From a virus (lineage: Duplodnaviria; Heunggongvirae; Uroviricota; Caudoviricetes), in IMG/VR virus record IMGVR_UViG_2703718801_000022: DNA of 42,217 nt. The stretch is one strand, 5' to 3'. The notes beneath the pieces are model-generated. The model was not told the origin of the DNA and did not search any database. It saw only the letters and a list, made by a program, of their open reading frames with translations. Each line of letters begins with the position of its first letter. Within the stretch, counting starts at the first letter, position 1. The position numbers and the translations under genes were made by a program. Shown here piece by piece: positions 8,975-30,179 of the stretch.

Positions 8975-9066
8975 TCCGCAGCGCAGGCTTTTTTGTGGAC
9001 GAAACAAAAGTCAGTGCTACACTCATTGACGCCACATTGAGGTGGCTTATAGATGGAAATTTCACA

Positions 9067-9228: not shown

Positions 9229-9260
9229 AAACAAGGCCGCGAAAGCGGCCTGTGACATGT
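9229..9260. terminator. Terminator hairpin downstream of minus-strand antirepressor gene
   Basis: GGCCGC-GAAA-GCGGCC stem followed on the minus strand by TTGTTTTT. Confidence 0.55.
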
Positions 9261-9277
9261 CACGATAGTTCCGTTTT

Positions 9278-9534
9278 GCACATCCCTGTGCCGCCGCCCG
9301 TCAGAAGAACCCTGCCTTGTCGTTGATGTATTCCGCGTGGGTCTGGATATCACGCAGGCATTTACTCACACCGACGATGTAGCAGAACATGGTGGTCAGC
9401 TCCGCCGCCGCGCCCGATACGTCGTGCCCGTCTTCCTGTAACTGGTTCAGCAGATTCATCAGCAGTGAGTTCTCCGTCAGGCCGAGAACACCAGACGGAG
9501 AATGAATCAGACTGCGGTAGCCGGGCTTCAGTGG
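9278..9534. repeat. Inverted repeat, right copy (3' end of second antirepressor gene plus 23 bp)
   Basis: Reverse complement matches 7894-8150. Confidence 0.85.
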
Positions 9535-10239
9535 ATAACCATAACATTTTGTCTGTGTTTTAATTGCCTCACGAAGCGCATCTAACATCTTGACTGCCAC
9601 TTCATCATTCTCTGATGCAACTCCAGCAGGGAGATACTCCCCTTCAAGCGGAACCCGGGCAACAAGAGACAACGCTTCGGCGAATTGATCTTCACCAATT
9701 TCTTTGTACGAACAGCCAAAGTGAGATTTTAGTGACGACCACATGGTAATGATCGCCCTCGCCTGTTTTTCTTTTGGCAGAGACTGACCGCGACTCATGA
9801 CGAGTTGTTTAATGGCTTCCTGCTGTTCAGTCGTGATTTTACCCGGCAACACCTTTTTAGCTTTGCGCGGGTTAACCACATGGCCTTTAGTCCAGTACTC
9901 GTAGAGCACATCATCACACTCTTCCTGATACTGGATTACCTTATCGCGGATTTCAGGGCGGACTTTGTTTGGACTGATGCTGTTCAACCAAGCTGCCAAT
10001 TTTCGTAAAGCCATACAAATCATGGCTTGCACCCCTCCGGCAGAAGGTATGGTGATTTCCACCATACCCTTCGAGAAGCGTTGAGAAATCTTCTTATGTT
10101 GAGATTTCCAGTCTAGACCCATTCCCTCAACGATAGGTTTCATTGGGGTGTACGGTTCGCCGTTGTGATTGACAACATAAAGTTCTACGCCGTGGAATGG
10201 CACGTTGATAGTAGATACCGCTGTTGCTATACTCGTCAT
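9301..10239 (-). CDS. Antirepressor, AntA/P22-Ant-like N-terminal domain plus shared Ant C-terminal domain
   Basis: 312 aa; N-terminus FHGVELYVVNHNGEPYTPMKPIVEGMGLDW; downstream of Arc-like gene as in P22 immI; C-terminus shared with 7417-8127. Confidence 0.75.
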   Translation of the reverse strand: MTSIATAVSTINVPFHGVELYVVNHNGEPYTPMKPIVEGMGLDWKSQHKKISQRFSKGMVEITIPSAGGVQAMICMALRKLAAWLNSISPNKVRPEIRDKVIQYQEECDDVLYEYWTKGHVVNPRKAKKVLPGKITTEQQEAIKQLVMSRGQSLPKEKQARAIITMWSSLKSHFGCSYKEIGEDQFAEALSLVARVPLEGEYLPAGVASENDEVAVKMLDALREAIKTQTKCYGYPLKPGYRSLIHSPSGVLGLTENSLLMNLLNQLQEDGHDVSGAAAELTTMFCYIVGVSKCLRDIQTHAEYINDKAGFF

Positions 10240-10312
10240 GTCGTTAATTCCTATACGTAGTTTTACGATACTGAAGCCCTTACGGTCTGGCCACCGTTGG
10301 GCTTCGCTGTTT
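10240..10312 (+). ncRNA. Candidate sar-like antisense RNA covering the antirepressor RBS
   Basis: -35 TTGATA (10205-10210), 17-bp spacer, -10 TATACT (10228-10233); nested hairpin GAAGCCC..ACGGT..ACCGT..GGGCTTC (10273-10305) + TGTTTTAT; antisense to ant RBS. Confidence 0.4.
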
Positions 10313-10479
10313 TATGCCACGCTATTCTTCTCACCAGTGAGTCCATACACTTTCCTCAACTGATAGATAATCTCTGTATTGAACTTTCGGCATTCTTTTT
10401 CACCATTTCTTTCAATAGCTAACTTCACATCGTCCGGAAAACGAATTCGTCGTTGACACATCTCTTTTGCTTTTTGCAT
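10312..10479 (-). CDS. Arc-like ribbon-helix-helix repressor
   Basis: 55 aa from ATG with AAGGAGAG RBS; RIRFPDDVKLAIERNGEKECRKFNTEIIYQL resembles P22 Arc; immediately upstream of ant. Confidence 0.7.
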   Translation of the reverse strand: MQKAKEMCQRRIRFPDDVKLAIERNGEKECRKFNTEIIYQLRKVYGLTGEKNSVA

Positions 10480-10599
10480 CTCATCTCTCCTTTGCCCCAC
10501 GGTGGGGCAAAATAATTGTCACACCGTGCGTCATTGATGTCAAGCACACGGTGAGGCATACTTCAATCATTGCAAGTAACTCAATATTTGGTGAAGAAC
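10480..10599. promoter_or_regulatory. Divergent Arc-like/Mnt-like control region with palindromic operators
   Basis: Perfect 19-bp palindrome TTGCCCCACGGTGGGGCAA (10492-10510); inverted CACCGTG (10522-10528) / CACGGTG (10547-10553). Confidence 0.5.
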
Positions 10600-11031
10600 A
10601 TGAGCAGAGAAGATCCACAACTAAGGATCAGACTTCCCATTGAAGTAAAAGAAAAAATAGAAATTTCTGCAAAAGCCAATAAGCGATCAATGAACGCTGA
10701 AATAGTACAACGTCTTGACACCAGCTTCCTGAAAGATATTCATGAAGATGACGTAATTTCTGCTTATGAAGCAAAAATCATTGCAAACAACGCACGGCAT
10801 GAAATATCAAATATCATTTTCAAAAGAACCTTTAATGAAATTAATAAAAAAATAACACTTGGACATACAAGTTTTTATATAAACCTTAATGACCTTGAAC
10901 TGGAATCACTTGCAGATAATGATTACCAGGTCATCTTTGAAAAAACATTTAATAAGCTCAATGAACTAGGTTACATCATCTGTGAAAATTCATGGGATGC
11001 AGATGGTTTTGGAATTGAAATACCTGAATAG
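10600..11031 (+). CDS. Mnt-like ribbon-helix-helix regulator with extended C-terminal domain
   Basis: N-terminus MSREDPQLRIRLPIEVKEKIEISAKANKRSMNAEIVQRL resembles P22 Mnt; 143 aa vs 83 aa for Mnt; AT-rich. Confidence 0.6.
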   Translation: MSREDPQLRIRLPIEVKEKIEISAKANKRSMNAEIVQRLDTSFLKDIHEDDVISAYEAKIIANNARHEISNIIFKRTFNEINKKITLGHTSFYINLNDLELESLADNDYQVIFEKTFNKLNELGYIICENSWDADGFGIEIPE

Positions 11032-11098
11032 GAAGAACAAAAGGCGTGTGCATATTACACGTCTTTAATATAATTGAAAAACACCACATTACTGATGT

Positions 11099-11689
11099 AT
11101 GTCTGTTACAACAAGGAGCGACATTTTGAAAACCATATCTATATTAAAGGTTGCATTAGGCGTCGCTATTATTTTGACGCTCTCAATATTGTTTTATTTT
11201 TACAACAAAAAAACTGCTATTGCTCTTGATGGTCACGCGGCAAACTCATTTTTCTCAGAGTACATAGTACCGCTATCAGGAAGCAGTATAACAAATAAAT
11301 ATACTGACTATGACATCAAATATGGAATTGATGATGGGGAGTCTATTGTATTACACGTAATCATTAAAAACCTAATGACAGTAAATAAAAATGCAGACTT
11401 CAACGATAAAAATACAATACACCACAACCACAGCAAAACATTAATTTCTTATAGTAACAACATCTATACGGATAAATACCTAAAATACATATCAGAAGAT
11501 ACAATAAAAGCAACCCGCGAAAAGTTAAAAAACATATATTGTGCATCCGGCAGTTTTCACAAATTATCGCCGCAAGAGCGTTTATTCTACGAAGCAAGAA
11601 AACAACGCAAGTCGATAATATTACATTATTATGCTGATTCAGGGGAGTCACTCATATTTAATATTGGGGTTTCCCCTGAATCATGCTAA
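11099..11689 (+). CDS. AT-rich membrane-anchored protein at the sieA-equivalent position
   Basis: N-terminal TM helix, Asn/Lys/Tyr-rich body; alternative TTG start at 11124 after AAGGAG; lies between ejection-protein genes and mnt-like gene. Confidence 0.5.
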   Translation: MSVTTRSDILKTISILKVALGVAIILTLSILFYFYNKKTAIALDGHAANSFFSEYIVPLSGSSITNKYTDYDIKYGIDDGESIVLHVIIKNLMTVNKNADFNDKNTIHHNHSKTLISYSNNIYTDKYLKYISEDTIKATREKLKNIYCASGSFHKLSPQERLFYEARKQRKSIILHYYADSGESLIFNIGVSPESC

Positions 11690-11700
11690 AGGTGTTTAAC

Positions 11701-14700
11701 TCACCGCATCACCGGATCCACTTGGTTTATTAGTGGCGCAATCCAGAACAGGTTATTGCCGGGTATCAGGGTTCGGACATTATGCACAATACGATCACCG
11801 GCATCACCATTCAACACTCCTGCGGTCACATCAATGATGCTATCCGCAAGACCAAATGACGGTCCGAATAGAGATCCTACGAATCCACGACTGGCATACC
11901 TAGACTGTGTTCCAGTGCCAAATAAAGCCCCCAGCCCAACAGCACCACCAGTAGCCTTTTCAGCCATGTTGTTATATTCCATCAATGGCCCAAGAATACC
12001 GGATCTATCTATACCCTCAAGCACCAGCTTCTCTGGTGACCAGTCAACATTTTTCCCTTTCGATGCTTCTTTAAGCGCATAGACCAGTGAGCCAAGAGCA
12101 ATCTGAAATGCAGTGCCATAATAAAATTGCGCAGTTCCTTCCTGTAACCCACCAAGTAGCGCACGGTTGTATGAAGCCGTTGTGAATGATTTAAACTGAA
12201 ATATCGTTCGCCCCATTGGAGTACTCGCCCATAAAGGTGTGTCACCAATACCGGGGGTGATGATAGTGTTATTAACGTCTTTCAGAACCGCTGACTGGAA
12301 TACTCCGGCAACGTACTGATCGTCCCATTTATCAAAGTTACCAATGTGCCATCCATCAATTACCTCACCATGTTTCTCGAACTCACTGCGAATACGCGCA
12401 GCCATATTGTCGTTGATACCGAGTTTTGCCATGCGACGTGCAGAAAACGCACCAGACAAAATACCGTCTGACGTGAGCATTCCGCTCATAGATTTGTTTA
12501 TGTCATTAAATCGATCCATGAGTGTCAGCTTGCCGAAGGCATCAGTAATTCGCTCCATTCCTGCTTCGACTGCTGTTGTCCTGGAAGAACTGTCAATCAG
12601 ATCACCAATTGCACGAGAACGTGAATGTAGTACAGTTTCCAATCCAATCCCCATCTTCAACATCTCTTCTTTGCTGGCCTTAAATGCCGGTGATTGGGAT
12701 ATCTGAGAAGCATAGCCTTTCATGGTGTTACGGAAACCATTAACCATAACCCCTCTGGCCAGATCTGGAATAGCTGATACTGTCATTCCACCGAGTTTGG
12801 TCGTGAAGTTCACATCCCGCAGAAAAGCGCCAGCACGAACAAAAAACGAAGACGGGTCATCAGGCATACCATATGTACCAACAAGACGATCGCGTAATGC
12901 TGTTATGTCTCTGAGATCATTTGCTCTTGATTTTGAAAGTCTGGACTGTTCTTTTCGTAATTCCTTTTCGTACTTTCGCATTAATGAATCGAGTTTACCC
13001 TGAGGAACAACTTCACCATTGCTCTCATAGCGTGCTTTCAGATTTGCCACACTTTCGTCATATTTCGCCTTTATTTTTTCAGGCACTTCCCGTAACAGAC
13101 TGTCATATTCGTCCTCAATTAATTGCAGACGCTCAGTCATAGTTCGTTTGCCAAACGTTCTCGTCAACTCAATTTCTGCTGCCGCTTCACGGATATGACG
13201 CTGCAGCACGTAATTCACATCACTTTCAAGATAATCCCTGATAAGACTATCAGGCACATTTAATGTTCTTTCTTTCGTACTACCTGCGGCTTTTACAGAA
13301 AATACGCTGACAAAATCCTGTGGAACCTTAGCACCAGTAATTTTATTAATTACGATATCCGCTGCAATTTCAGCATCCTCAGGATCCAGTGTTTTATTTC
13401 CTCTCGACCACCAGTCAACCAAAATACGTCGAAATTTATCGCGTTCACTGATTATTTTTCCAACTTTATATATACGTGGAAAATAGCTTGCCTGGCCTAA
13501 TGCTTTCAGTTCTTCATCTGGCGGTAATAAACCAAGCTTTTGCATTTCAACCTTCACCCGATTTAATACAGTTCGCATCGCCTGCGCCGTTTCCTGAACA
13601 ACAGGATTAGCATGCACATCACCGCTTCGCATAGCATTCCCAACCTGCTGACGAAATGAATCAAAACTCATGTCACCACCATCAGCTTTATACTTTGCGT
13701 ATGCCTGTTTATTTCCGACAACAACAGCAGCTTCTTCACGCTGCCATCCACGTGTACGGGTTTCTACAGCTACCGGTGTTTCAATCCCCCTTTCATTTCC
13801 TTTAAGGGTGAAATTATTTTCGGCTAACTCCAGCGTTGTTTTTCGCACTGTCTTGGACGGAGACTCCATTAACCTTGTCAAAGGAGTAAGATAGCTCCCT
13901 GCTTTCCATGCAGCCTTTCCAACCACCCCACCGGAAACAGGGGTTAAATCATCCAGAGTCGCTGTATCAATTTTCATAGCACCAACACTACCACCATCGG
14001 AAAGCGAAGCGGCAGCCCTGTCAGTCGCTGATGTAATGCTCATATTATCAAGAGCATCAGCAACCTCACGTGTGGCTGCAGCCCGGACGGATGGCGAAAG
14101 CGCAACACCAGCACTGGCAAACACGCCGCTCATCATCGCACCCGCTGCAACGTGAGCGGCACTTTCACCCCATGAGCGTGTTATTTGCTGATTATTCAGC
14201 ACAACCTCGCTTAATGCTGTACCGGCAGCACCAATCGCAATCTGTGAGCCAATACGCGCCAGTGCCCCTCCTTGAGCACCGGGGATAAACATTGACGCAA
14301 CAGTAACCGGATCCATTCCCGCAGCAATACTGGCAAGAGTTCCAACTACGCCAGCATCAGACAATAAACGTCTGTCTTCATTTTCATCATCTATCTGCTG
14401 CTTAATCCACGCCGTTTCCTCTGGCGATCGGGAATCTGCAAATTTCGCCCCCCAGTATTCATAACCGTGCAACTCATTTTTATCAGCATATGGGTTATAA
14501 CCTTCGACCGGTTCAAACTGTCTGGCTGGTCGGAAAAAACCAGCCAGAATATTGTTCTGTCGCATTGCAGCCCCCCATACGGAAGGCTCCGGTGGCAATG
14601 GCTCAGGATTAGCCCCTTCCGGAAGGGCAACATCAAACCCAGTTTGTTCCGGCAAAACATTACCTGACGGGATCAGTCCGTTATTAAGATCTTCAGCTTG

Positions 14701-14715
14701 TGCATAAACTGGCAT
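11701..14715 (-). CDS. Large internal virion/ejection protein (T7 gp16 position)
   Basis: 1004 aa; last large gene of the structural operon; assignment by size and gene order. Confidence 0.55.
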   Translation of the reverse strand: MPVYAQAEDLNNGLIPSGNVLPEQTGFDVALPEGANPEPLPPEPSVWGAAMRQNNILAGFFRPARQFEPVEGYNPYADKNELHGYEYWGAKFADSRSPEETAWIKQQIDDENEDRRLLSDAGVVGTLASIAAGMDPVTVASMFIPGAQGGALARIGSQIAIGAAGTALSEVVLNNQQITRSWGESAAHVAAGAMMSGVFASAGVALSPSVRAAATREVADALDNMSITSATDRAAASLSDGGSVGAMKIDTATLDDLTPVSGGVVGKAAWKAGSYLTPLTRLMESPSKTVRKTTLELAENNFTLKGNERGIETPVAVETRTRGWQREEAAVVVGNKQAYAKYKADGGDMSFDSFRQQVGNAMRSGDVHANPVVQETAQAMRTVLNRVKVEMQKLGLLPPDEELKALGQASYFPRIYKVGKIISERDKFRRILVDWWSRGNKTLDPEDAEIAADIVINKITGAKVPQDFVSVFSVKAAGSTKERTLNVPDSLIRDYLESDVNYVLQRHIREAAAEIELTRTFGKRTMTERLQLIEDEYDSLLREVPEKIKAKYDESVANLKARYESNGEVVPQGKLDSLMRKYEKELRKEQSRLSKSRANDLRDITALRDRLVGTYGMPDDPSSFFVRAGAFLRDVNFTTKLGGMTVSAIPDLARGVMVNGFRNTMKGYASQISQSPAFKASKEEMLKMGIGLETVLHSRSRAIGDLIDSSSRTTAVEAGMERITDAFGKLTLMDRFNDINKSMSGMLTSDGILSGAFSARRMAKLGINDNMAARIRSEFEKHGEVIDGWHIGNFDKWDDQYVAGVFQSAVLKDVNNTIITPGIGDTPLWASTPMGRTIFQFKSFTTASYNRALLGGLQEGTAQFYYGTAFQIALGSLVYALKEASKGKNVDWSPEKLVLEGIDRSGILGPLMEYNNMAEKATGGAVGLGALFGTGTQSRYASRGFVGSLFGPSFGLADSIIDVTAGVLNGDAGDRIVHNVRTLIPGNNLFWIAPLINQVDPVMR

Positions 14716-18471: not shown

Positions 18472-20936
18472 CAGAATCCCCCAACAGTAAGGCGAGGAAT
18501 AACGGCAAGAACAGACAGCGGCAACGGGTCAAGCTGACGGATTTTTACACGCCCGTTTTTGCCCCAGTTACTGTCCAGTTTCACTTCTACTTTTCCGGTA
18601 GCATCATCAACAGGATCATCGTAGAACTCGAATTCACGCTGTGGATATTCGTACCATTTACCGCCGGGCGTAGTCGCCCAGATGCCGCGACTGGCATTCA
18701 CAACCAGAGTAACGGACGGGATCACCTGTTTTTTGTCCAGCAGCGTTTCCTGTCCGTTAATGTTGATATCCAGTGTTTCGAATTCAGCAGTTATTGGCAG
18801 GCCGATGTGCACAACAGCCCCCGGTGATTCCAGCGTGACGGCACCTCCGGAAACCACTTTCTGTGGTTCCACGTTCGCATCAGAGAGAATGTTTACGGTC
18901 TGGCCTTCAAGATGAGACAGGCCTCCAAATGTCCGGCGCGCCATCTGCCAGTTCGTGGTAGCCACATTCCTGAGGGATGGCGGGACGTTCCTGTTAGCAC
19001 GAACCACTACAGCGGTATTGCTGGTTACAGAAATGATGTCGCAACGTAATTCTTTTGACACTTCATCGCCAGGATCAGTTCCGGTATAAGGGAACTGTAG
19101 TTGAGCACCGACATCACTACTGGTGAAGTACGCACCACCAGAAACACTGATTGTATATTCCGCGCGGTAATCCCATTCGCCAGAACCACCAGTGATGATC
19201 ATCGTTCTGTCAGACGTATTTCTTCCATCATAGCTAAGGCCAGAATCAACAAAGAAAGCATCTTCATCGCTGGTAAATAAACGGCTGGACAGTCGCTCGA
19301 TGTATCTCACTGTTTGCCCGTTAACGGTTCGGTTAACGACGAAATACACCGCATCTTCATTTCCTTCGCTGATACTGCATGTGCTTTCATATTTTCCGGT
19401 ACTGGATTGTGGTGCCCATGCAAAAACCTGCTGATCACGCAAATAGGTCATCACCAGTAATTTACCGTCATCACGAATGCAGAAGGCGCTGGAGTAAGGG
19501 ACAATAGAGAAGCACCAGTCAACAATGCTGTGCTTCTGAAAAAGATGATTGGCAAGGATGGTCAGGTCGTTCCCCTGATAGCCGTCAACATCGAATGAGT
19601 AGGCCAGATCACGGACAACACTGCCTTTCTCCTGGACGAACAGAGCAATATTCGCCACGGCAATTGGTGGGACATTGCTCGAGCCATTTGATCCCTGAGA
19701 GCTGAATGCAAATGATGATGGGGTTAACACTTTGTTCTGGTCGCCGGTGATGACGTACTCACCTCCGGAAGTCAGTGCCACCAGCGAACCGACATCAATC
19801 AGGTGGCGGATCTCATTAACCTGACGCCCGGCATAGGTGTAGATAATTCTGTCGTCATCCTGCGTAGGATTGCTTTTGCCAAAATCCTTATAATCCCCGG
19901 TACGGCTGGCCCAGATAGTCTGAGGGAACGCAGTCGATGCGGCGAAGTAAAGACGTTGTTGATAATAAACAACAGTGCCAGGATAACCATTAACACTGTT
20001 CCAGGCATATTTAGCCCATTTATAGCTGGCATTATCCTCGCCAACTACCTGCGAAGGGATATAGGAAATCACCTCGGCAGTTGCAGTAGTTCCATTTGCA
20101 GCAGTGATACGGGCAATGCCAAAACCACTGTGCAGATATTCCCACTCAATGCCAGTATCATCATCACCGGATCCGCCCCAGCCATCCCATGATGTGCCTT
20201 CTGTATGCGAAGGGCGCAAAGTACCTGTTTTGCCTGCTGTAACGGCGCGATAGTAGTTACTGTCTGCACGGCGAATATCGCCAACCGACGTACTCTTACT
20301 GGTTTCCCATACCGGCACAGAATCCACTGCAGGCTGTTCCAGATAGAACAATTTGCCTACCTGCTCCGCGCCAAAAATAGAGGCGCTTGCCGTTAACGTA
20401 ATTGTCCCGGTGCTGGCGCTGGCATAAACCGTCACTGACTCGTCAATATTGATATCTTCAAATGGCCCGTTCTTCGTTACCACATCAACCAGTTGCCAGT
20501 TGTCATGCGCATAGCGGCGCAACTCTTTCGGCGGGTATGCCGGGTGAACCAGCGTAAGCACGTCGGCGCTTTGCGTAAATTTAATTCGGAACAGATCGGC
20601 TTCAGTATATGGCGTGGCAATTTCATAAATAACATTGCTGCTGTTCAGCACCAACGCACCATCTTTGATAACGCGCATGTACTGGTGTCCGAACTCCAGA
20701 GCATAGGTCTGAACCGTCGAGAACTGAAACGGGATCAGGCGGCATTTCCGATTTGGGTATTTTGCGGCACCGACAAAACGCGTACCTGGTCGATTCTCAA
20801 CGCCGCCATACTGCCGCACGATGAAGTTATCGCACTTGCGCAATGCCACCTGGTACTTCGCCATGTCGATACGTCCGTACAACGACGGTCCAATCTCACC
20901 ACCGGCAAAGCTGGGCTGGATCCAACTGATAGCCAT
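18471..20936 (-). CDS. Tail tubular protein B / nozzle (T7 gp12-like)
   Basis: 821 aa; N-terminus resembles T7 gp12 start (GG.S..P pattern); follows gp11-like gene. Confidence 0.55.
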   Translation of the reverse strand: MAISWIQPSFAGGEIGPSLYGRIDMAKYQVALRKCDNFIVRQYGGVENRPGTRFVGAAKYPNRKCRLIPFQFSTVQTYALEFGHQYMRVIKDGALVLNSSNVIYEIATPYTEADLFRIKFTQSADVLTLVHPAYPPKELRRYAHDNWQLVDVVTKNGPFEDINIDESVTVYASASTGTITLTASASIFGAEQVGKLFYLEQPAVDSVPVWETSKSTSVGDIRRADSNYYRAVTAGKTGTLRPSHTEGTSWDGWGGSGDDDTGIEWEYLHSGFGIARITAANGTTATAEVISYIPSQVVGEDNASYKWAKYAWNSVNGYPGTVVYYQQRLYFAASTAFPQTIWASRTGDYKDFGKSNPTQDDDRIIYTYAGRQVNEIRHLIDVGSLVALTSGGEYVITGDQNKVLTPSSFAFSSQGSNGSSNVPPIAVANIALFVQEKGSVVRDLAYSFDVDGYQGNDLTILANHLFQKHSIVDWCFSIVPYSSAFCIRDDGKLLVMTYLRDQQVFAWAPQSSTGKYESTCSISEGNEDAVYFVVNRTVNGQTVRYIERLSSRLFTSDEDAFFVDSGLSYDGRNTSDRTMIITGGSGEWDYRAEYTISVSGGAYFTSSDVGAQLQFPYTGTDPGDEVSKELRCDIISVTSNTAVVVRANRNVPPSLRNVATTNWQMARRTFGGLSHLEGQTVNILSDANVEPQKVVSGGAVTLESPGAVVHIGLPITAEFETLDININGQETLLDKKQVIPSVTLVVNASRGIWATTPGGKWYEYPQREFEFYDDPVDDATGKVEVKLDSNWGKNGRVKIRQLDPLPLSVLAVIPRLTVGGF

Positions 20937-21870: not shown

Positions 21871-21914
21871 TCCTGCAATAAAGGGGCCGAAGCCCCTTGT
21901 CTGATTCGCGAGGC

Positions 21915-22259: not shown

Positions 22260-22268
22260 CTTAACCAG

Positions 22269-22694
22269 TTACTTTTGAGCGGATCGGGTACGGTGTGCAT
22301 CAACATCAAGACTGATACCCGCAGTGAATTCGCCAGCCGTTAGTGGGCCAGTTGCGACGGAGTAGTTAACACGCAGATATCGCTGAACACCGGCAGGCAC
22401 CTTTGCAGAAACAACTCGTTTACCTGCTGTCAGGGTGGTCTTTGCCAGTGCACCACTATCATAAATAGTGGTCCATGAGCTGTTATCCTCACTCGTCTGC
22501 AACTGGATGTTTACAGTTGCATCACCGCTTGCCGTGGCGGCTGTGTTAACCAGCACCCAAAACTCAAGCGGGTAACCCACACCGATATCGCGACGGTTTC
22601 CGTCAATTGGACCGAGATCGATTACGTCAGTAGAAGCCGCGGTATTCGTAACCGCCTGAGCTTCGGAGAACATCAACAGTTTGTCGGTGATCAT
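22269..22694 (-). CDS. Capsid decoration/stabilisation-like protein
   Basis: 141 aa Thr/Ala/Val-rich beta-type protein directly after major capsid gene. Confidence 0.4.
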   Translation of the reverse strand: MITDKLLMFSEAQAVTNTAASTDVIDLGPIDGNRRDIGVGYPLEFWVLVNTAATASGDATVNIQLQTSEDNSSWTTIYDSGALAKTTLTAGKRVVSAKVPAGVQRYLRVNYSVATGPLTAGEFTAGISLDVDAHRTRSAQK

Positions 22695-22745
22695 CTTCTT
22701 TCTCCATTAGTGGGTCTGTTACGACCCACAGGTTAATAACAGGCG

Positions 22746-23738
22746 TTACACCACGCGGGCTTCTGTTTCCAGAAGCGCATCAGTTTCACGGATTGGTACA
22801 CCACGGAATGACGTCCACCACTCGCCTTCAGTCTCTTTTACGCTAATCGCCAGAGATGTTTTCTCCAGAGATTGCAGATCAAGAGCCTGGCCTACAGTGC
22901 GGTTCATGTAGAACACCGGGCGACCCATGCCACGGTTTGGAATGCGATGCAGTGCTTTAACCATCAACTTCGCAATATTTGCGGCAGAGGAAGGTTCTGA
23001 AAGATTGCTGACATCGATGTTTGCAATGCGAACAACATAACGCCAGTCACGCAGAGCAAGTCCGTTGTCCCATTTGTAATGGGTACGGTAGCCTTCGTAC
23101 TTGCCGCCATTAGCATCTTCCAGTGTCACCTGGCCTTTATCTTCCATCTGGATGCCAGCCTTCTGCCCTTTCGGGAAGATGCCATGCACGGTGTTTTCGC
23201 CCCACACCACTAACCAGATTGAGGTGTTATCTGTACCCGTGCCACCAGCATCAATGATGTTCTGAGCATTACCCGCAGACAGGCTGGAATAGCGGGAGGA
23301 CAGCCCCATAAACTGCTGAGGGTTAACGCTGGAATCACCATAAAACAACGTCTGCGCCATCTGCTGATTCATCGCTTCAATAAATGCGCGGTCTTCAGAC
23401 AGGCGGAATTCGGCGGTATTACCGTTCAGATCAGCCAGTGACTTATCGACTTCAGCATAGGTTTCCAGCATTCCAACGGAATCGGTGACCTGCACTGTGG
23501 TTGATTTGCTTGGCTGTACACCATAGTTCAGCAAACGCCAAGTGGCTGAAGGTAAACCAGAACGAATGGTGGTTCGGTGTCCGGTAGGAAGGTTCCCTTC
23601 GACAAAAGGCATATCCTGAAGGATCGGGTTAGTTTGACCGAGAAGCTCGATAATCTTATCGACTTTCCCGTTTGGATCGACGCGCTTACCCCAGTCAGCC
23701 AGCGTTAGCGCAGTTAAGCCTTTAACAGCCATTGTCAT
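22746..23738 (-). CDS. Major capsid protein
   Basis: 330 aa following scaffold gene; size and position typical of podovirus capsid protein. Confidence 0.75.
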   Translation of the reverse strand: MTMAVKGLTALTLADWGKRVDPNGKVDKIIELLGQTNPILQDMPFVEGNLPTGHRTTIRSGLPSATWRLLNYGVQPSKSTTVQVTDSVGMLETYAEVDKSLADLNGNTAEFRLSEDRAFIEAMNQQMAQTLFYGDSSVNPQQFMGLSSRYSSLSAGNAQNIIDAGGTGTDNTSIWLVVWGENTVHGIFPKGQKAGIQMEDKGQVTLEDANGGKYEGYRTHYKWDNGLALRDWRYVVRIANIDVSNLSEPSSAANIAKLMVKALHRIPNRGMGRPVFYMNRTVGQALDLQSLEKTSLAISVKETEGEWWTSFRGVPIRETDALLETEARVV

Positions 23739-23746
23739 TTCCTCTC

Positions 23747-24448
23747 TTATTTGCCATAGAGCACTTCGGCCGCACTACGCTGGCCTTCATTACCACCGGT
23801 GACCATGCCATCTTCAGACATCGCCTTTCCGATTTTCACGAACGTTTTGACCAGATCAGGGTGATTACCCAGCCCGGTGGTGTTCAGATATTCTTTGAGC
23901 TCAGGTGTCCCGAACTGGTCAAGCGCACGCTGTGCGGCGCTAAGGTTAGAAATCAACTTGTCGCCACCGATTTCTTTGTCAGCTTTTACATCCGCAGCCC
24001 ACTGCTCGGTTGTTTTCTGCCAGGCTTCTGCCTGGCGCTGCTGAACACCTGCCAGAATCTTCGGATAAGCATCAACCAGCTTTTGCGCTTGCTCGTTGGT
24101 CAGGTTAAGTTCTCGCGCCACCGGCTCGAATTCCTGCAACGCTTCTGTATCCAGCTCTACGCCTTCGGCAGCCTGAAACTCGTACTTCTCAGGCGCACCC
24201 TCTGGTTTATTGCCGTCCTTTTTTTCATCCTGCTTATCGTTTTCAGGCTTTTTGTCATCAGCAGGTTTATCGCCATCAGCAACAGGTTGTGGCTTATCAC
24301 CTTCCTGTTGTGATGGATCACCAACTGGAGCAGGGTTATCACCTGCAGGCGCTGACGGTTCTGACGCAGCCGGAGCTGCTCCACCATCGACTGGTTGCTC
24401 ATTGCAAAGACGGCGATACAGCAAACGCTCAAATAAATTCATGATCAC
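23747..24448 (-). CDS. Scaffolding protein
   Basis: 233 aa, acidic Pro/Asp/Lys-rich N-terminus and helical C-terminus; between portal and capsid genes. Confidence 0.6.
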   Translation of the reverse strand: MIMNLFERLLYRRLCNEQPVDGGAAPAASEPSAPAGDNPAPVGDPSQQEGDKPQPVADGDKPADDKKPENDKQDEKKDGNKPEGAPEKYEFQAAEGVELDTEALQEFEPVARELNLTNEQAQKLVDAYPKILAGVQQRQAEAWQKTTEQWAADVKADKEIGGDKLISNLSAAQRALDQFGTPELKEYLNTTGLGNHPDLVKTFVKIGKAMSEDGMVTGGNEGQRSAAEVLYGK

Positions 24449-24741
24449 TCCTGTTCACTGGCCTCTTTGGCCATCTTCAAATACTGTTCAGGGCAATGCG
24501 CCATAACGCGCTGAAACAGTTCCAGCGCCAGATTGCGTTGCCCCTCATTAAATGCCATTGCCATAGCGTCCATCGGTGAGATAGCGGAAAACACACGGCC
24601 TTTCTCCAGCACCGACCAGACAACGCGACGCCCCTGTTCACTGCTCATGACAAAGCGAATGTCATCAATTTCACGCTGCGCCATGTCACGTTGCTTACGG
24701 GCGTTTTCTTCTTTCAGTTGATCGTCTTCGTAATCTGTCAT
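24445..24741 (-). CDS. Hypothetical small acidic protein
   Basis: 98 aa ORF coupled between portal and scaffold. Confidence 0.45.
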   Translation of the reverse strand: MTDYEDDQLKEENARKQRDMAQREIDDIRFVMSSEQGRRVVWSVLEKGRVFSAISPMDAMAMAFNEGQRNLALELFQRVMAHCPEQYLKMAKEASEQE

Positions 24742-26417
24742 TGTGATTGCCCACCCTGACCACTAACTGCATTCGCCATAGCTGACAAAACACTCGGATC
24801 CGAAGTTTTAGCTTCGCTTAGCGTCTTGGCACCCTGTGCCGCAGCCATCCCCATCGCCATCATTTGTTGCTGCTGTTGCTGCTGTGCCCGTTGCTGGCGA
24901 GCCTGCTCAACCTGTTCCTGCGGAACAATGACGGTTGGAGACACTCCAGACATATCAGCGAATGCATCGATCGCCTGATCAACGTTGAGTTTGTCGAGAG
25001 CTTCTGGTTTCGCTTGCGCAAGTTGACCTATGAAGTTGACCGTAGACGCCAGACTGGACAGGCCGATAGACTTCTGCGCCTGAGCCATGACGGAAATGTA
25101 TTCGACCTTCAGGGGCATACCTTCCATCGCGTCAGGCGGTGGCGGCAGCATGTTTTTACGCACCATCATCGAGAAAGCGCGGTCAATGAGAGGATTAAGA
25201 CATTCGTCGTTCAGACGCTCCAGAACCGGCCCCAACATTAGAAGTTTTTCTTCTTTCATTTCGATCACTGCTTCAACAGGCATCGAGCGGGTATTGATGT
25301 TCTGCAACATCATGAACAGATCGACAAAGTAGGCGCTGTTAATGATTTGGCGAGTGTCCTGAATGTCTGCTACCAGATCTGCTGTACTGGGGTTAACCAG
25401 ATAAGCAGGCCTGAAACCATCCTGACCAGTAATCTGATCGATATACGTGATGTCGCCAGGAAGAAGGGATGCGCGCTGATTCTTGAGGGAAGTCGGAGCA
25501 ACCATCGGCGGATTGGTGGCTTTATCAATCAACTGCGACTTACGCTTCTGGAGAAGCTGCAATGCCTTAACAGGTCCAAGCGCCAGCATACCCGGGCATG
25601 ATGATCCATAAACATCTTCGCCGTTAACTTCCCAGCGCGGAGCCATAATTGGAAACTCATCGAATCCGGACTCACGCAACAACTTGTCGTTATCGCCACC
25701 AACCTCGTAATAAACCGATTTGAATGGCTTGTTCTTGCTATCCAGCTTCGATGTATCGCGGTCAATGTTCGGGTAAACCGAATGCATCACTTCAATCCAC
25801 TTCTCGTAGGTGCCGCTTTCCCACATGCTTTTTACGGATTCGCTGACGTTATTTAGCCCGAACTCCTGAACAAGCTGACGAACGGTCATAGAGAACTTGC
25901 GAAAACAGGTGTCCACACTGCCACGAGGTGAGTTAGCCAGGTAGTAACTGCCTATCGGGAATGGCATTGTGCGAATGATGTCCTCGTCATCCTCCAGTAC
26001 CGCCATTGCACCAGTGCTGTATGTGCCGAGGCTTCCGTATAACTGCGGAAGAGACTGGTAGAGATTCGACTTATTGAACATATCGTTCATGCGGTTCTGC
26101 ACCGCCTCAAGCCACAACTTAACAGGGCCATAATCCATCATTTCAGGATCTGGCGTAGCTAGGCGAAACCACGGACGCGCGGGGCTTGTGATGCCTGACA
26201 TCATGCCGCTGGCGAGAGTGCGCGCCGCCATAGTCCCGGTCGAATCAATAATGCGTGTATTGCGTCGATCGTTACGGTTGACATCAGAAGTCAGAAAGCG
26301 GGAACCACGCGGGTTGATGTAATCACTCAACTCGCGCCAGTGCGGCTCGAACGACTGACGCTCGCTTTCAAGTTGTGCGAACTGTTTGTTCAATCGCTCT
26401 TTAGTTGTTTCCGCCAT
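24738..26417 (-). CDS. Portal (head-to-tail connector) protein, T7 gp8-like
   Basis: 559 aa; Gln/Ala/Met-rich C-terminal tail as recalled for T7-type connectors; precedes scaffold and capsid. Confidence 0.75.
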   Translation of the reverse strand: MAETTKERLNKQFAQLESERQSFEPHWRELSDYINPRGSRFLTSDVNRNDRRNTRIIDSTGTMAARTLASGMMSGITSPARPWFRLATPDPEMMDYGPVKLWLEAVQNRMNDMFNKSNLYQSLPQLYGSLGTYSTGAMAVLEDDEDIIRTMPFPIGSYYLANSPRGSVDTCFRKFSMTVRQLVQEFGLNNVSESVKSMWESGTYEKWIEVMHSVYPNIDRDTSKLDSKNKPFKSVYYEVGGDNDKLLRESGFDEFPIMAPRWEVNGEDVYGSSCPGMLALGPVKALQLLQKRKSQLIDKATNPPMVAPTSLKNQRASLLPGDITYIDQITGQDGFRPAYLVNPSTADLVADIQDTRQIINSAYFVDLFMMLQNINTRSMPVEAVIEMKEEKLLMLGPVLERLNDECLNPLIDRAFSMMVRKNMLPPPPDAMEGMPLKVEYISVMAQAQKSIGLSSLASTVNFIGQLAQAKPEALDKLNVDQAIDAFADMSGVSPTVIVPQEQVEQARQQRAQQQQQQQMMAMGMAAAQGAKTLSEAKTSDPSVLSAMANAVSGQGGQSQ

Positions 26418-26431
26418 TTCAATGACTCCGG

Positions 26432-26638
26432 TTACTGACCAAGCAGCGTTTTACCGCTGGTATTAGCGGTTGATGTGTCGCCCTGAGAACCGGTAAGCAG
26501 CGTAGAACTACGACCAGCAGCAGCGCGACGGCGACGTGTTTCTTCGTCGCGGGCATCAACAACGGCGGCATCCTGCTCCTGTGGTGCTGCCTGAACTTCT
26601 GGTGTTGCAGGCACTGATGGTGAGCTACCCATGCACAT
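26432..26638 (-). CDS. Hypothetical small protein upstream of portal
   Basis: 68 aa ORF with GGAG 8 nt upstream; low-complexity. Confidence 0.3.
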   Translation of the reverse strand: MCMGSSPSVPATPEVQAAPQEQDAAVVDARDEETRRRRAAAGRSSTLLTGSQGDTSTANTSGKTLLGQ

Positions 26639-26728
26639 ATCAATGACTCCGTACGCAATTAAATTATTACCAACTTAACCACATATGATTTATTTATCGT
26701 AGATAGTTGACATTTAACGCACGAATTA

Positions 26729-26743
26729 TTACCTTTAAGGTAA
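26729..26743. promoter_or_regulatory. Operator-like palindrome TTACC-TTTAA-GGTAA
   Basis: Perfect member of dispersed family; upstream of portal operon and next to TTGACA at 26707-26712. Confidence 0.45.
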
Positions 26744-26759
26744 TCAAAGAGTTCATTCC

Positions 26760-27060
26760 GGTTATTAACCTGACTGGCTTGTCGTTAAATTGAACAGGTG
26801 GAGTGAGCTTTTATTTTGAGCAGTACGGCGTATGGCACATGCGCCGATAGTGGTCTGGATACGTTTAAGGGGCACCCTCCCTTGCTCGGGCAAACGAACC
26901 AGGTAGCCGGAATGTGCAAGTCGAGCGGTTTTATTCCGCGCACGGGGATTCACCATCCCGGCGATTCGGTGTGACGCCTCGGAAGAGACGAGGGTACAAC
27001 GATGAGAGCATTTATGGAGCCGCGACAAAGTGTGGTGCCTTAACAGGCTAAGTGCTCTCA
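26760..27060 (+). other. GC-rich structured non-coding region upstream of tRNA
   Basis: No convincing ORF; several stable hairpins (GGCGTATGG..CATGCGCC, CGGAAT..ATTCCG, CCTCG..CGAGG). Confidence 0.25.
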
Positions 27061-27065
27061 GCGTT

Positions 27066-27142
27066 GTGGCATTAACTCAGTTGGACAGAGCAACCGCCTT
27101 CTAAGCGGTTTGTCGCAGGTTCGAATCCTGCATGCCACGCCA
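27066..27142 (+). tRNA. tRNA-Arg (anticodon UCU)
   Basis: Cloverleaf by eye: acceptor GTGGCAT/ATGCCAC, anticodon stem ACCGC/GCGGT with loop CTTCTAA, T-arm GCAGG-TTCGAAT-CCTGC, 3' GCCA. Confidence 0.85.
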
Positions 27143-27185
27143 GAATCACGCCTAAGGACCGTGATGCCAGAAGTTCCAGGTGCTT

Positions 27186-27228
27186 GGCGGTGATGGTTTC
27201 CCTTGAAGGACTATCACCGCCCTTTTTA
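27186..27228 (+). terminator. Rho-independent terminator downstream of tRNA
   Basis: Stem GGCGGTGAT...ATCACCGCC followed by CTTTTT. Confidence 0.6.
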
Positions 27229-27340
27229 CAGCAGGACGCCATTGCGATGACTTCATGCTGTAAACCAGTACAGCCACGGAAGGCATAACTCATTGCTTCC
27301 AGTTCGCCCGGTTCGCCGGGCATTTTTTTAAGGCGAGATT

Positions 27341-27712
27341 ATGAACGACCAGCAAATCGAAAAAGAAATCGTTGAGAAAGGCAAAACGGTACCGCGAGTT
27401 ACGCCAGACCATATCGAAGGAATTATTGCTCAGGAGGCATATTTCACAGCAGAGGATGGTGCCTTTGGCAAAGCCATAAAAGCGAAACATACTGGCGGAG
27501 AGGTAAACTACCAGCCGCACGAATCACTTTCTCTGCTGACGTTCTGCGTCCTGGTGCTGCGCAACGGCTTCACCGTCACCGGAGAGAGCGCCTGTGCAAG
27601 CCCGGAAAACTTTGATGCAGAAATTGGTCGGAAGATTGCCAGGCAGAATGCTGTAAACAAAATCTGGATGCTCGAAGGTTACTTGCTGAAGCAGAAGCTA
27701 AGCGAGCAATAA
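27341..27712 (+). CDS. Phage Gp49-like family protein (moron)
   Basis: 123 aa; C-terminal ACASPENFDAEIGRKIARQNAVNKIWMLEGYLLKQ recalled as typical of the Gp49-like family; opposite strand to flanking late genes. Confidence 0.45.
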   Translation: MNDQQIEKEIVEKGKTVPRVTPDHIEGIIAQEAYFTAEDGAFGKAIKAKHTGGEVNYQPHESLSLLTFCVLVLRNGFTVTGESACASPENFDAEIGRKIARQNAVNKIWMLEGYLLKQKLSEQ

Positions 27713-27802
27713 CACCGTGACATGTCACAAACAGTCAGCCGATGAGCTGGCTTTGTTTTATCCTCATCAGAGGATATAAACGACATTATCCCCACCAGCG
27801 GA

Positions 27803-29278
27803 TTAAGCATACGGGTCATAATCTGTGATGGCCTTGCCTTGCTGGTTCTGCTGCCCAGGAATTCGCAGACGCTTCGACACAGGGAAAGCAAACGTCAGCA
27901 GTAGCGCATCGCCTTTACCCGGCGAACGCCCAAGACGCTCTTTGATATCTTCCTTCGGTTCGATAACGATTTTACCGTCCACACGAACTTTGTACTCTGC
28001 CGCCGACAGGTCGTCTGCAGTTTCCAGGTCATCCAGCATGCCGCCCAGCCTCAGCCATGTCTTACATGAGTTGAACATCTCCCCACGCTTGTTAAGCATC
28101 TGCGGGTCAGTGGACGCACCGCCGAACGGAACAAGTTGCCATGTACGTCCCCAGCCATCACCGATTGACTTCAAACCGGTTCCGTAACCGAAGTCGATGA
28201 ACACCGCGTCAGCCTGATACTGGTCTTCAAAGTCAGCGATACGCTTCGCCATAATCAGATCGTCGGTAGTCTTGTTGCCAGTCCACAGCACCTTACTGTG
28301 TAGCCCCTGCCGCAGGTATATCACCGCGTCATCAACGCCTGAATATGCCGGGTCAACACCGATTATCACCGGAGCATGCGCCACCTGCGCAGCGGTTACC
28401 ACCCGTTTCATTGCCTCATCAGTAAGACCGGTAGGGATAAACTGCAATTCAGATGCATCAGGGAATATGCCGCGCACACGGATTTTAACGAAGTCGCTGT
28501 CTTCCCCGTAGTCATCAACCCATTTCTGCAACTGCTGTTTGTTAGTGCCTTCCACCGTTCGGCTGTCAATCTGCGCAGTTTTCCAGCGGTGTTTATATTT
28601 GCGGAAACATTCGCGGAAACGTCCGGTGTTACGTGTAGGGTTTCCGAACGCCACCCAGATAATCTCAGTGTCTTCGTCCGTAAGCGCACCCTCAGCAACT
28701 TCCCACACCAGATCCGCAATGTTCGACGCTTCATCGAATACCACGATGATGCGTTTGCGCTCGTTGTGTAGTCCGGCGAATGCCTCAGTGTTGTGCTCAG
28801 ACCAAGGGATTGCGTCAGCTCGCCACCGCTTGTCGTGCCCAGGGTCATTGCTGTACATCGCGGTAGCGGTACAGGTAAACCACTCTTTCGTGATAGCAAG
28901 GTTCGACCACTTGATAATTTCCGGCCAGGTCTTCGTTCGTAGCTGGTTGTCGGTGTTGGCGGTCACCACGACCTTACAATCCTCGCAAGTGGACATGCCC
29001 CAGTTGATCAGCATTGAGATAAATGCGGATTTACCAATACCGTGACCAGAAGCGCGTGCCAGCATAAGCGGCTGATAGCGCGTCTCCGGATTCTGCAGGT
29101 GATCACGTATCTCTCGGAACGCATCAGCCTGCCACTGACGTGGGCCGGTAGCATGTGCCAGTTCAGTCCCCTCTTCCCCCCACGGGAACGCATAGAGGGC
29201 ATAGCCAAGCGGATCGTGAGTGAACCCTGCAATATCTTCGATTAACTGCTCTTCAGGAGATAACGCTGCATCTGTCAC
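27803..29278 (-). CDS. terL: Terminase large subunit
   Basis: 491 aa; Walker A-like ARASGHGIGKS, acidic ATPase motif VVFDEA, C-terminal nuclease region; precedes portal. Confidence 0.85.
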   Translation of the reverse strand: MTDAALSPEEQLIEDIAGFTHDPLGYALYAFPWGEEGTELAHATGPRQWQADAFREIRDHLQNPETRYQPLMLARASGHGIGKSAFISMLINWGMSTCEDCKVVVTANTDNQLRTKTWPEIIKWSNLAITKEWFTCTATAMYSNDPGHDKRWRADAIPWSEHNTEAFAGLHNERKRIIVVFDEASNIADLVWEVAEGALTDEDTEIIWVAFGNPTRNTGRFRECFRKYKHRWKTAQIDSRTVEGTNKQQLQKWVDDYGEDSDFVKIRVRGIFPDASELQFIPTGLTDEAMKRVVTAAQVAHAPVIIGVDPAYSGVDDAVIYLRQGLHSKVLWTGNKTTDDLIMAKRIADFEDQYQADAVFIDFGYGTGLKSIGDGWGRTWQLVPFGGASTDPQMLNKRGEMFNSCKTWLRLGGMLDDLETADDLSAAEYKVRVDGKIVIEPKEDIKERLGRSPGKGDALLLTFAFPVSKRLRIPGQQNQQGKAITDYDPYA

Positions 29279-29871
29279 TGATTACCATCCTGACGTTCTT
29301 TGAGTCGCTTCCTGGCTGCCGCTATGCGATCAGCAATTGTCACATTCACATTAACATCCAGGCGTTCTTTGAATGCGTTGACGTCGACGTGCTTACCAAT
29401 CAGTTCTAGGTTCTTCACCTTGTCAGGCCATTTAATTTTTTTGAGGATTGTCTCTATCGAGTCCTCGTTCATGTTCATAATGGTCGATGACAGATCAAAG
29501 CCGCTAAGCGTAGTGCGCCATATTTTCGGCCACTCGCGGATTGGCTTAAGACTCCCATCGTCGTTGAGGATATCAATCACGTCCATCTGGTCGATCTCCA
29601 CCAGGCGCATGAGAACGTAATCAGCACTGACGCGCATTCGTTTGTTGCGCTCTTCCATCAACTCGGCAATCCGTTTTTGAATGCGTTCATCGCGCATCAT
29701 GACGCTGGCTTTAACTGCCGCTGTATTTGGGGAGAATCCTGCGTTAATCGCTGCCTGAGTCTGGTTTTCAGGAGTTTTGATGTATGACTGGCAATAAGCC
29801 TCCTGCATTGCTGTTAGTGGCTTAAATTGCGTTGATTTGCGTTTATAGGTTTTAGGTTCAGCAGGCATCAT
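29275..29871 (-). CDS. terS: Terminase small subunit
   Basis: Coupled to terL; start set at internal ATG (MMPAEP) because the upstream ORF extension covers operator and terminator sequence. Confidence 0.65.
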   Translation of the reverse strand: MMPAEPKTYKRKSTQFKPLTAMQEAYCQSYIKTPENQTQAAINAGFSPNTAAVKASVMMRDERIQKRIAELMEERNKRMRVSADYVLMRLVEIDQMDVIDILNDDGSLKPIREWPKIWRTTLSGFDLSSTIMNMNEDSIETILKKIKWPDKVKNLELIGKHVDVNAFKERLDVNVNVTIADRIAAARKRLKERQDGNQ

Positions 29872-29903
29872 AACCACCGTGGTAATAGTTACCGTTGTGG
29901 TAA
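29871..29903. promoter_or_regulatory. Tandem operator-like palindromes at the entry of the late operon
   Basis: TTACC-GTTGT-GGTAA (29889-29903) and TAACC-ACCGT-GGTAA (29871-29885) abutting the terS start codon. Confidence 0.45.
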
Positions 29904-29912
29904 TAGTACCAT

Positions 29913-29941
29913 GCAAAATAAAGCCGCCATAGTTGGCGGCA
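29913..29941 (-). terminator. Terminator-like hairpin upstream of terS
   Basis: On the minus strand GCCGCCAACTATGGCGGC followed by TTTATTTTG. Confidence 0.45.
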
Positions 29942-29945
29942 GTAT

Positions 29946-30179
29946 TCAAAGTCCATCAAATTCATCGTAAAAACTCTCGTCAAGATACCCTTCCCATTTA
30001 CCGCGAATGAAAATTACATCCTCGCCGCAAGGGTGCTGACTGTCGATAACTATATCCCTCCTGGCGCAACCATACTTATGCATGAGAAATTTAACCTCTT
30101 TCGGAAAATTTGCTGAGTTATCTCTCATATCTTCAAGGTCGTAGCGTATTTTTGGCATAACACCTTCGTGACATGTCAC
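29946..30179 (-). CDS. Hypothetical protein
   Basis: 77 aa ORF; start overlaps palindrome GTGACATGTCAC. Confidence 0.4.
   Translation of the reverse strand: MTCHEGVMPKIRYDLEDMRDNSANFPKEVKFLMHKYGCARRDIVIDSQHPCGEDVIFIRGKWEGYLDESFYDEFDGL

Follow-up and report, generated by a model that had tools for sequence, protein, structure and literature searches.

A recurrent 12-bp palindrome at transcription-unit ends of an epsilon15-like prophage: candidate operators of a small phage regulator

Introduction

The virus record IMGVR_UViG_2703718801_000022, a 42,217-nucleotide (nt) stretch of DNA referred to here as the window, is an epsilon15/phiV10-like (Uetakevirus-type) prophage that is closest to TL-2011b. 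It contains three exact copies of the perfect 12-bp palindrome GTGACATGTCAC, termed sites 1 to 3 (Table 1), and none elsewhere. This raises the question of what such a short sequence does at three separate places in one phage genome, and whether it is read by a phage protein, by a host protein, as RNA, or by nothing at all. In the literature, GTGACATGTCAC was found in no paper.

The palindromes are probably cognate operators, of the form YGTGAC-NN-GTCACR, of the 112-amino-acid (aa) regulator encoded at 30176-30514 on the - strand, and they would serve mainly as roadblocks at the ends of transcription units. The observations that point to this reading are given first, followed by the alternatives and by the genes and RNA elements around the sites.

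The palindrome in the window

The Poisson expectation for GTGACATGTCAC in the window is 0.0025, with a probability of about 3e-9 for three or more copies. In 100 dinucleotide-preserving shuffles the mean count was 0.01, and none of the 100 reached three. Among the 12-bp perfect palindromes of the window, GTGACATGTCAC alone is repeated, and a search allowing up to two mismatches yields only one extra match, which is located inside a coding gene. An earlier note on this DNA had stated that three exact copies of a 12-mer are far above chance, and the count (3 observed against ~0.003 expected) bears this out.

The three sites also have in common one oriented 14-mer, CGTGACATGTCACA, which is read on the - strand at site 1 (9251-9264) and on the + strand at sites 2 and 3. 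The flanking (T/C) and (A/G) bases described in the earlier note are therefore real, and they extend to related phages, where 99% of 104 distinct sites have a pyrimidine (C or T) ahead of the 12-mer, giving the consensus YGTGAC-NN-GTCACR. The likeness to CRP sites put forward in the same note does not hold, because CRP requires TGTGA-N6-TCACA and all three sites read GTGA-N4-TCAC.

Each of the three sites lies where a transcription unit ends. At sites 1 and 2 an intrinsic terminator adjoins the motif, which occupies the place of the opposite-direction U-tract; site 3 has a terminator about 230 nt downstream, past a 70-aa gene. Sites 1 and 2 lie as the earlier note described. Site 3 had been described as overlapping the start of a gene, but the overlap that matters is with the TGA stop codon of the regulator gene; for the gene that follows, ATG 30158 is a likelier start than the GTG within the palindrome. 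Taken as a whole, the interpretation offered earlier is supported in part.

The motif travels with a regulator gene in unrelated phages

The regulator that ends in site 3 belongs to the family of epsilon15 gp49, phiV10p55 and N15 gp46, which is annotated as "transcriptional regulator" in PHROG 536. The family comprises about 211 clusters at 50% identity and is found in epsilon15-like, N15-like, P2-like, lambdoid-type (Q-/cII-carrying) and Vibrio temperate phages. The regulator is the only open reading frame (ORF) of the window with homologues in all of Pectobacterium myovirus ZF40, N15 and a Yersinia P2-like phage, and each of these carries the motif. ZF40 has three copies of TGTGACATGTCACA, one of which lies 3 nt past the stop of the regulator homologue, with the others in a cII-like gene and in an early-left gene (gp08). 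N15 has three copies of GTGAC(TG/CA)GTCAC, located over the gp46 stop, inside repA, and upstream of the C4-like RNA/antirepressor locus, and these sites are kept in N15-like contigs at 69–76% protein identity. The Yersinia phage has a tandem pair of sites, 33 bp apart, just past a terminator-like hairpin. In Vibrio phage K308 there are three sites, whose centres are GC or AC, and one of these precedes the small terminase gene by 20 nt. The distant family member in locus L278 likewise has a site that overlaps the stop of its gene. The site-over-stop layout is kept down to about 30–35% protein identity (N15 gp46 and the L278 member). A hidden Markov model of the family finds the regulator in every motif-bearing genome that was fetched, including K308, and finds none in lambda, P22 or the pieces of the Escherichia coli K-12 chromosome.

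The association is also seen in counts. At least one site is present in 137 of 144 loci that were selected by the regulator, irrespective of the motif, and in 93 of the 144 a site lies within a few bases of the regulator stop codon. Because these loci include many close relatives, locus counts overstate independence, and a fairer basis is provided by distinct contexts and by the at least five distinct phage architectures represented. In a subset of 56 of the regulator-selected loci (955 kb), half-sites separated by two nucleotides (N2) occur 59 times, in 42 distinct contexts, compared to three sites with N1, four with N6 and none with any other spacing, where about 0.9 is expected per spacing. 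This means that a short dyad target is associated specifically with this regulator in at least five unrelated phage types. Such co-occurrence with one small, ribbon-helix-helix (RHH)-like regulator favours the first of the two possibilities raised in the earlier note, namely binding sites for a phage regulator.

The centre of the site is less constant than its arms. Most enterobacterial phages have AT as the central dinucleotide, and the N15 group has TG/CA. In the Vibrio group the dinucleotide is mostly GC, AC, GT or GG. This pattern has occasional exceptions.

Viral contigs were also scanned with the 14-mer. Some hundreds of chance matches are expected in such a scan, which is by itself no measure of enrichment, and only structured, recurring contexts were used. 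In lambdoid-type (Q-/cII-carrying) contigs (L112 at 2009, 5267 and 7190; L116/L053; L026), the motif lies inside coding genes. Where a Q-like antiterminator gene begins, it encodes the first residues as R-D-M-S-Q, and near the ends of cII-like genes it encodes (R/C)-D-M-S-(Q/H). The nucleotides are exact though the homologues have otherwise diverged. Other matches (L107, L069, L040, L050, L021) are dense arrays of GTGACA/TGTCAC type beside coding sequence for acidic repeats. These arrays resemble origin iterons within a replication gene, and they are possibly unrelated to the regulator motif.

The motif as an edge of variable cargo slots

Phages close to the window show how the sites behave when the neighbouring genes change. 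Salmonella phage epsilon15 has exactly three copies, at 2142 (the terminase/moron junction), 19517 and 39612. The copy at 19517 overlaps the stop codon of the last late gene, gp18, beside a terminator, and the copy at 39612 overlaps the gp49 stop. In phiV10 the three places known from epsilon15 are all occupied, two by exact copies and one by a copy that deviates at a single base; 19493 corresponds to site 1 and 2262 to site 2. TL-2011b has two copies, including one at 32282 that is equivalent to site 1; its moron is a different one, without the motif. Among epsilon15, phiV10 and TL-2011b, the motif is an island of identity whose flanks are diverged or unrelated.

To survey the regulator end, 80 loci were fetched by homology to the 112-aa protein, with the motif ignored, and these represent 26 distinct 3′ contexts. 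The exact motif is present at the regulator stop in 23 of the 26. Among the contexts, L160 (phiV10) ends at the stop and is not readable, and L149 has one mismatch. The exceptions are two loci with an additional small gene, and in these the motif comes after that gene. Beyond the "...CACG" at the regulator stop, the sequences fall into at least six unrelated families, which include the 70-aa gene, LexA-box promoter modules, and spacers of two kinds with a terminator. The cargo genes at the terminase junction, about ten and unrelated to one another, all share one ending, stop-N3/4-GTGACATGTCAC-AA(A/T)CAG-hairpin-TTTGTTTT. The regulator-stop contexts and the common end of the cargo genes together mark the motif as the fixed edge of variable cargo slots. 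It can therefore be used as a precise slot boundary marker in epsilon15/phiV10-like prophages, both for annotation and for the engineering of reporter phages of the phiV10 type.

In some relatives (L188, L191, L195 and L198, at about 10340-10410 in each locus), a promoter-like TTGAC... element overlaps the LexA box TACTGT-N8-ACAGTA directly after the regulator-stop site. Judged by these elements, this is a predicted SOS-controlled cargo module in the slot that the 70-aa gene occupies in the window.

Sharp edges of this kind are what a passive boundary sequence would produce, that is, a short linker at module junctions that acts as a homology patch for phage recombinases swapping cargo, and that no protein reads. 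Homology between relatives stops exactly at the motif, the sequences after "...CACG" and the moron genes sharing one stop-motif-terminator unit are unrelated to each other, and the variable neighbour of site 1 differs among phages. In addition, the window encodes RecT and an exonuclease, and the concept of boundary sequences is described in the literature (PMC3029335), with examples annotated in phage CUS-3. The motif is like the lambdoid boundary sequences (the concept of Susskind and Botstein and of Clark et al. 2001) in being a short conserved sequence exactly at mosaic junctions. It is unlike them in occurring also within coding genes, in having the architecture of a protein site, and in tracking one regulator gene. 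The ZF40 cII-like gene and gp08, N15 repA and the starts of Q-like genes are conserved genes without a junction, and the motif follows the regulator across phages that share nothing else. Half-sites, spacing and the flanking purine and pyrimidine are fixed while the centre changes, which is the pattern of a sequence read by a protein and not of a homology patch. Moreover, 12–14 bp is very short for homologous exchange, and three identical copies per genome would favour harmful internal rearrangements. The annotated boundary features of CUS-3 (101 and 482 bp) do not contain the motif. A purely passive boundary is thus unlikely. The second possibility in the earlier note, junction sequences where cargo was acquired, is right in that the sites lie exactly at homology breaks and cargo-slot edges, but as a sole explanation it is not supported, given the copies inside conserved coding genes.

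The regulator protein

The regulator is predicted to have an N-terminal RHH-like module and a C-terminal cysteine-rich tail that resembles a zinc ribbon. A model made by AlphaFold from a deep alignment of 70 family members has a predicted local distance difference test score (pLDDT) of 93.1, and features a helix at residues 5-19, an extended segment, helices at 30-42 and 52-74, a cysteine-rich loop, and a helix at 100-108. It replaced a model from a shallow alignment, which had a pLDDT of 65.7 and gave meaningless Foldseek matches. The confident model aligns best with RHH DNA binders, and a Foldseek search with the regulator model returned nothing significant. At the sequence level, weak matches to RHH_5, RepB-RCR_reg and YbfE were obtained, and searches of Pfam, NCBIfam and Protein Data Bank sequences with the single protein or a shallow alignment assigned it to no family. 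The model predicts an RHH-like fold of the DNA-binding type. The literature on late control in epsilon15 and phiV10 and on N15 gp46 contained nothing about it.

Compared to known RHH repressors (P22 Arc and Mnt, CopG, AmrZ, and the antitoxins ParD and TacA), the regulator is similarly small, with an RHH-like model and a short dyad target, and its gene and site are tightly linked and move together. It differs in that the site is not at its own promoter but over its stop codon and at other unit ends, in the fixed outer pentamers and variable centre of the site, and in an extra basic N-terminal helix and the cysteine-rich C-terminal tail. It also differs in that sequence searches placed it in no family.

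The tail may point to a second relationship. A profile of the 70 members gives weak matches to DksA/TraR zinc fingers (TraR and YbiI, E 0.013-0.02), in which the pattern C-x2-C-G-x2-(L/I)-P...G-x3-C is shared. None of the 70 family members matches the Pfam family zf-dskA_traR.

A proposed roadblock at the ends of transcription units

In other phages, the sites lie within coding sequence (cII-like, repA and Q-like genes) or shortly before terminase or cargo genes. What all of them share is that they stand in the way of RNA polymerase, and not at a promoter, which favours a role as roadblock or insulator. In the mechanism proposed here, the regulator would bind the site as a dimer, and the bound protein would act as a roadblock or insulator to RNA polymerase at the ends of units. 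Such a roadblock could limit read-through into downstream or convergent genes, and a regulator bound at its own stop codon may bring about 3′-end feedback of the LacI-at-O3 kind. The sites would remain fixed while neighbouring accessory genes turn over, and for this reason they would also appear as sharp edges of cargo slots.

There are precedents for both parts of this mechanism. At O3, which lies at the 3′ end of lacI, LacI illustrates that an operator can block RNA polymerase and feed back on its regulator (PMC3711431; PMC13584721), and proteins that block RNA polymerase before a stop codon, with subsequent trans-translation, have been described (PMC13584721). The window resembles the lac case in that a putative operator lies where the gene of its own regulator ends. 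It differs in that the lac arrangement is a side effect of control of the next operon's promoter, whereas here the stop-codon overlap itself has been kept across deep divergence. In mycobacteriophages, proteins bound at stoperators are thought to halt elongating RNA polymerase (PMC9283540). The stoperators of Cluster A (L5 gp71 type) are similar in that several copies of one short site are spread in and between transcribed genes, but they are asymmetric and orientation-dependent, number about 20–30, and are bound by a monomer of the immunity repressor, compared to about three symmetric sites here. Immunity-repressor operators or stoperators were considered as an identity for the motif and rejected: the annotated operators of epsilon15 are ATTACC-N4/5-GGTAAT, a different sequence, and the motif is symmetric.

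Several points weigh against the proposal that the palindromes are operators of the regulator. The link between site and protein consists of co-occurrence together with a predicted fold. A few family members (L027, L034, L102 and L279/L280) have no intact site at the regulator stop. In a classic RHH dimer it is the central bases of the site that are read, whereas this motif has a variable centre between fixed outer pentamers; the regulator would have to recognize it through the basic N-terminal helix or in some other mode. The sites are upstream of the terminator at some junctions and downstream of it at others. Finally, the sites of K308 and the Yersinia phage look more like promoter-proximal operators.

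If the proposal is correct, a family that so far carries only the labels "hypothetical" and "transcriptional regulator" would gain a function and a DNA target, and three previously unannotated landmarks in well-studied phages such as epsilon15, phiV10 and N15 would be explained. Conserved operators that overlap the stop codon of their regulator's gene and lie at operon ends would also provide a natural test case for roadblock control and 3′-end feedback. Even so, this would be one more pair of transcription factor and operator, with a putative effect.

A possible effect on RNA polymerase beyond simple obstruction

The zinc-finger matches allow a more elaborate version of the roadblock, in which the regulator would be tethered to DNA and act on elongating RNA polymerase, unlike a conventional repressor of promoters. 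The RHH module could park a TraR/DksA-like zinc finger on the unit-end sites and so turn weak, one-directional hairpins into efficient stops, and stop-less transcripts of its own gene could then set the level of the regulator. This version is speculative and has a low probability.

In another version the regulator would be a positive factor, either a late-gene activator or a factor that modulates terminators by acting on RNA polymerase at the sites. Its gene closes the early-right operon and lies directly upstream of the terminase genes, as lambda Q does, and no late activator is annotated in the epsilon15, phiV10 and TL-2011b records that were examined. The K308 site 20 nt upstream of the small terminase gene would also suit an activator, as would the weak profile matches to DksA/TraR, a family that binds the secondary channel of RNA polymerase. 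However, N15 and ZF40 have Q-type late regulators of their own besides the regulator protein, and there is no consistent promoter geometry around the sites. Sites within cII-like, repA and Q-like genes fit repression better than activation, and the lack of any zf-dskA_traR match among the 70 members also counts against an activating role. A positive role is therefore quite improbable.

RNA elements and host factors as alternatives

The palindrome could also act after transcription, as a hairpin in the 3′ untranslated region that affects termination, mRNA stability or downstream translation. In epsilon15-like phages all three copies are located 0–25 nt past a stop codon, two of them abut a terminator hairpin, and several copies lie immediately upstream of a Shine-Dalgarno sequence. 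The hairpin itself is small, with a stem of only 4 bp, a 4-nt loop, and a folding energy of -1.2 to -2.7 kcal/mol. Its stem has no compensatory changes, the centre that would form the "loop" varies, and in N15 the asymmetric centre occurs in both orientations relative to transcription. Rfam has no family at any of the sites, and matches in the window only isrK, C4 and the tRNA. The copies in coding regions are hard to explain as an RNA element, and an explanation of this kind is very improbable.

A further alternative is that the phage borrows or mimics the binding sequence of a host protein, for example MatP (matS, GTGACRNYGTCAC), CRP (TGTGA-N6-TCACA) or SlmA. The matS site is 13 bp long, GTGAC[AG]N[CT]GTCAC, and its half-sites GTGAC and GTCAC are identical to the pentamers of the motif (PMC3603311); TGTGA is, in turn, a CRP half-site. 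The likeness to the MatP/matS system goes further, in that MatP has an RHH module, its sites are few per replicon, and they are not bound to promoters. The hosts of the motif-bearing phages (Escherichia, Salmonella, Pectobacterium, Yersinia, Klebsiella and Vibrio) all belong to orders in which MatP is known to occur.

The spacing, however, is N2 and not the N3 of matS, and GTGA-N4-TCAC is not the N6 arrangement of CRP. In a sample of four 50-kb pieces of E. coli K-12 MG1655 (200 kb), GTGAC-N2-GTCAC is absent, as it is from lambda and P22. The piece from the Ter region contains two GTGAC-N3-GTCAC sites, which are MatP matS sites, and their recovery indicates that the scan works. It had been proposed that a similar density of the palindrome in the host chromosome would refute a connection with the prophage; the comparison of no copies in the 200-kb sample with three in 42 kb gives no such refutation. 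Moreover, the presence of the motif tracks the phage regulator and not the host, matS has been reported absent from 500 prophages (PMC3603311), and hhalign finds no sequence similarity between the regulator and MatP (probability 0.1%). A borrowed or mimicked host site is accordingly highly unlikely.

The motif is not matS, since its spacer is 2 and not 3 in every phage examined and matS occurs only in the K-12 Ter sample, and a MatP homologue as binder was rejected at the sequence level. CRP, FNR-type, LacI-type and SlmA-type sites do not fit in spacing or inner bases. A phage protein that reads half-sites of the matS type might also touch the host MatP/matS system. Lambda (L213) contains two GTGAC-N1-GTCAC sites, at 9747 and 19010, where ~0.05 are expected, and no N2 or N3 site.

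A cos or pac site, suggested by the phiV10 and epsilon15 records that end at or near the motif, was rejected in view of the three copies per genome and of the description of the epsilon15 genome as non-redundant, implying no fixed ends.

Organization of the window around the sites

The features next to the three sites are listed in Table 1. The terminator that begins directly after site 1 reads away from it on the - strand, and on the other side the site is 15 nt from the right arm of a 292-nt inverted repeat. The unit that ends at site 2 is convergent with the large terminase gene. A weaker terminator can be read there on the - strand, at 27749-27736, and its tail extends into site 2. At the end of the early-right operon, the order is regulator, site 3, 70-aa gene, terminator and small terminase gene. 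The hairpin at 29940-29923 is the same one that comes after the motif in phiV10 and TL-2011b, and the 70-aa gene is absent from phiV10, TL-2011b and epsilon15.

Table 1. Positions of the three palindrome sites and of the features next to them in the window.
Feature	Position	Strand	Remarks
Gene for 88-aa membrane-associated protein (phrog_3117 / phrog_14503)	8962..9228	+	Conserved flank of site 1 (gene 3′ end with hairpin)
Intrinsic terminator AGGCCGCTTTCGCGGCCT, then TGTTTTT	9234..9251	-	Begins directly after site 1 in the - direction
Site 1, GTGACATGTCAC	9252..9263		Between the convergent 88-aa membrane-protein gene and ant; abuts - strand terminator
P22-type antirepressor Ant (PF10547)	9301..10239	-	Variable flank of site 1
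tRNA	27066-27139	+	Upstream of the moron, same strand
Gp49-like moron gene, Pfam PF13876 (Phage_gp49_66)	27341..27712	+	
Site 2, GTGACATGTCAC	27717..27728		4 nt past the moron stop, 4 nt before the moron's terminator
Intrinsic terminator AGTCAGCCGATGAGCTGGCT, then TTGTTTT	27733..27752	+	
Intrinsic terminator GCCGCCAACTATGGCGGC, then TTTATTTT	29923..29940	-	End of the early-right unit
70-aa gene, phrog_1541	29946..30158	-	Inserted between site 3 and the early-operon terminator
Site 3, GTGACATGTCAC	30168..30179		Holds the regulator TGA stop (30176-30178); the next gene's ribosome-binding site and ATG (30158) come directly after it
112-aa regulator gene, PHROG 536	30176..30514	-	Last gene of the early-right operon

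Two of the predicted ORFs near the sites may need revision. The long ORF of the small terminase, 29275-29949 (TTG start at 29949), includes the early-operon terminator, and translation probably begins at a later codon, in line with the annotations of TL-2011b and epsilon15. The ORF at 27072-27323 on the - strand (phrog_4647) is an annotated protein in phiV10. It overlaps the tRNA, which is a tRNA-Arg in related phage records, and contains two terminator-like hairpins on the + strand, and it may not be a real gene.

The RNAs isrK (7184-7260) and C4 antisense RNA (7285-7368), both identified with Rfam, lie directly upstream of a Bro-N antirepressor gene (7402-8127). Together these form an immunity-I module of the P1/N15 type, which is convergent with a second, P22-type arc/ant module that contains ant. 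One of the N15 sites adjoins, just upstream, a C4-like region homologous to this C4 RNA module. The inverted repeat, which is 92% complementary (7859-8150 and 9278-9569), corresponds to the 3′ parts of both antirepressor genes. It flanks a 1.1-kb segment with a YafO-like toxin gene, the 88-aa membrane-protein gene and site 1, and this segment could in principle invert.

The window also contains six Chi octamers (15325, 17982, 19778, 23242, 27792 and 41346), compared to about 1.3 expected for both strands together. All six read CCACCAGC on the + strand, and thus GCTGGTGG on the - strand, which is the strand of the late genes.

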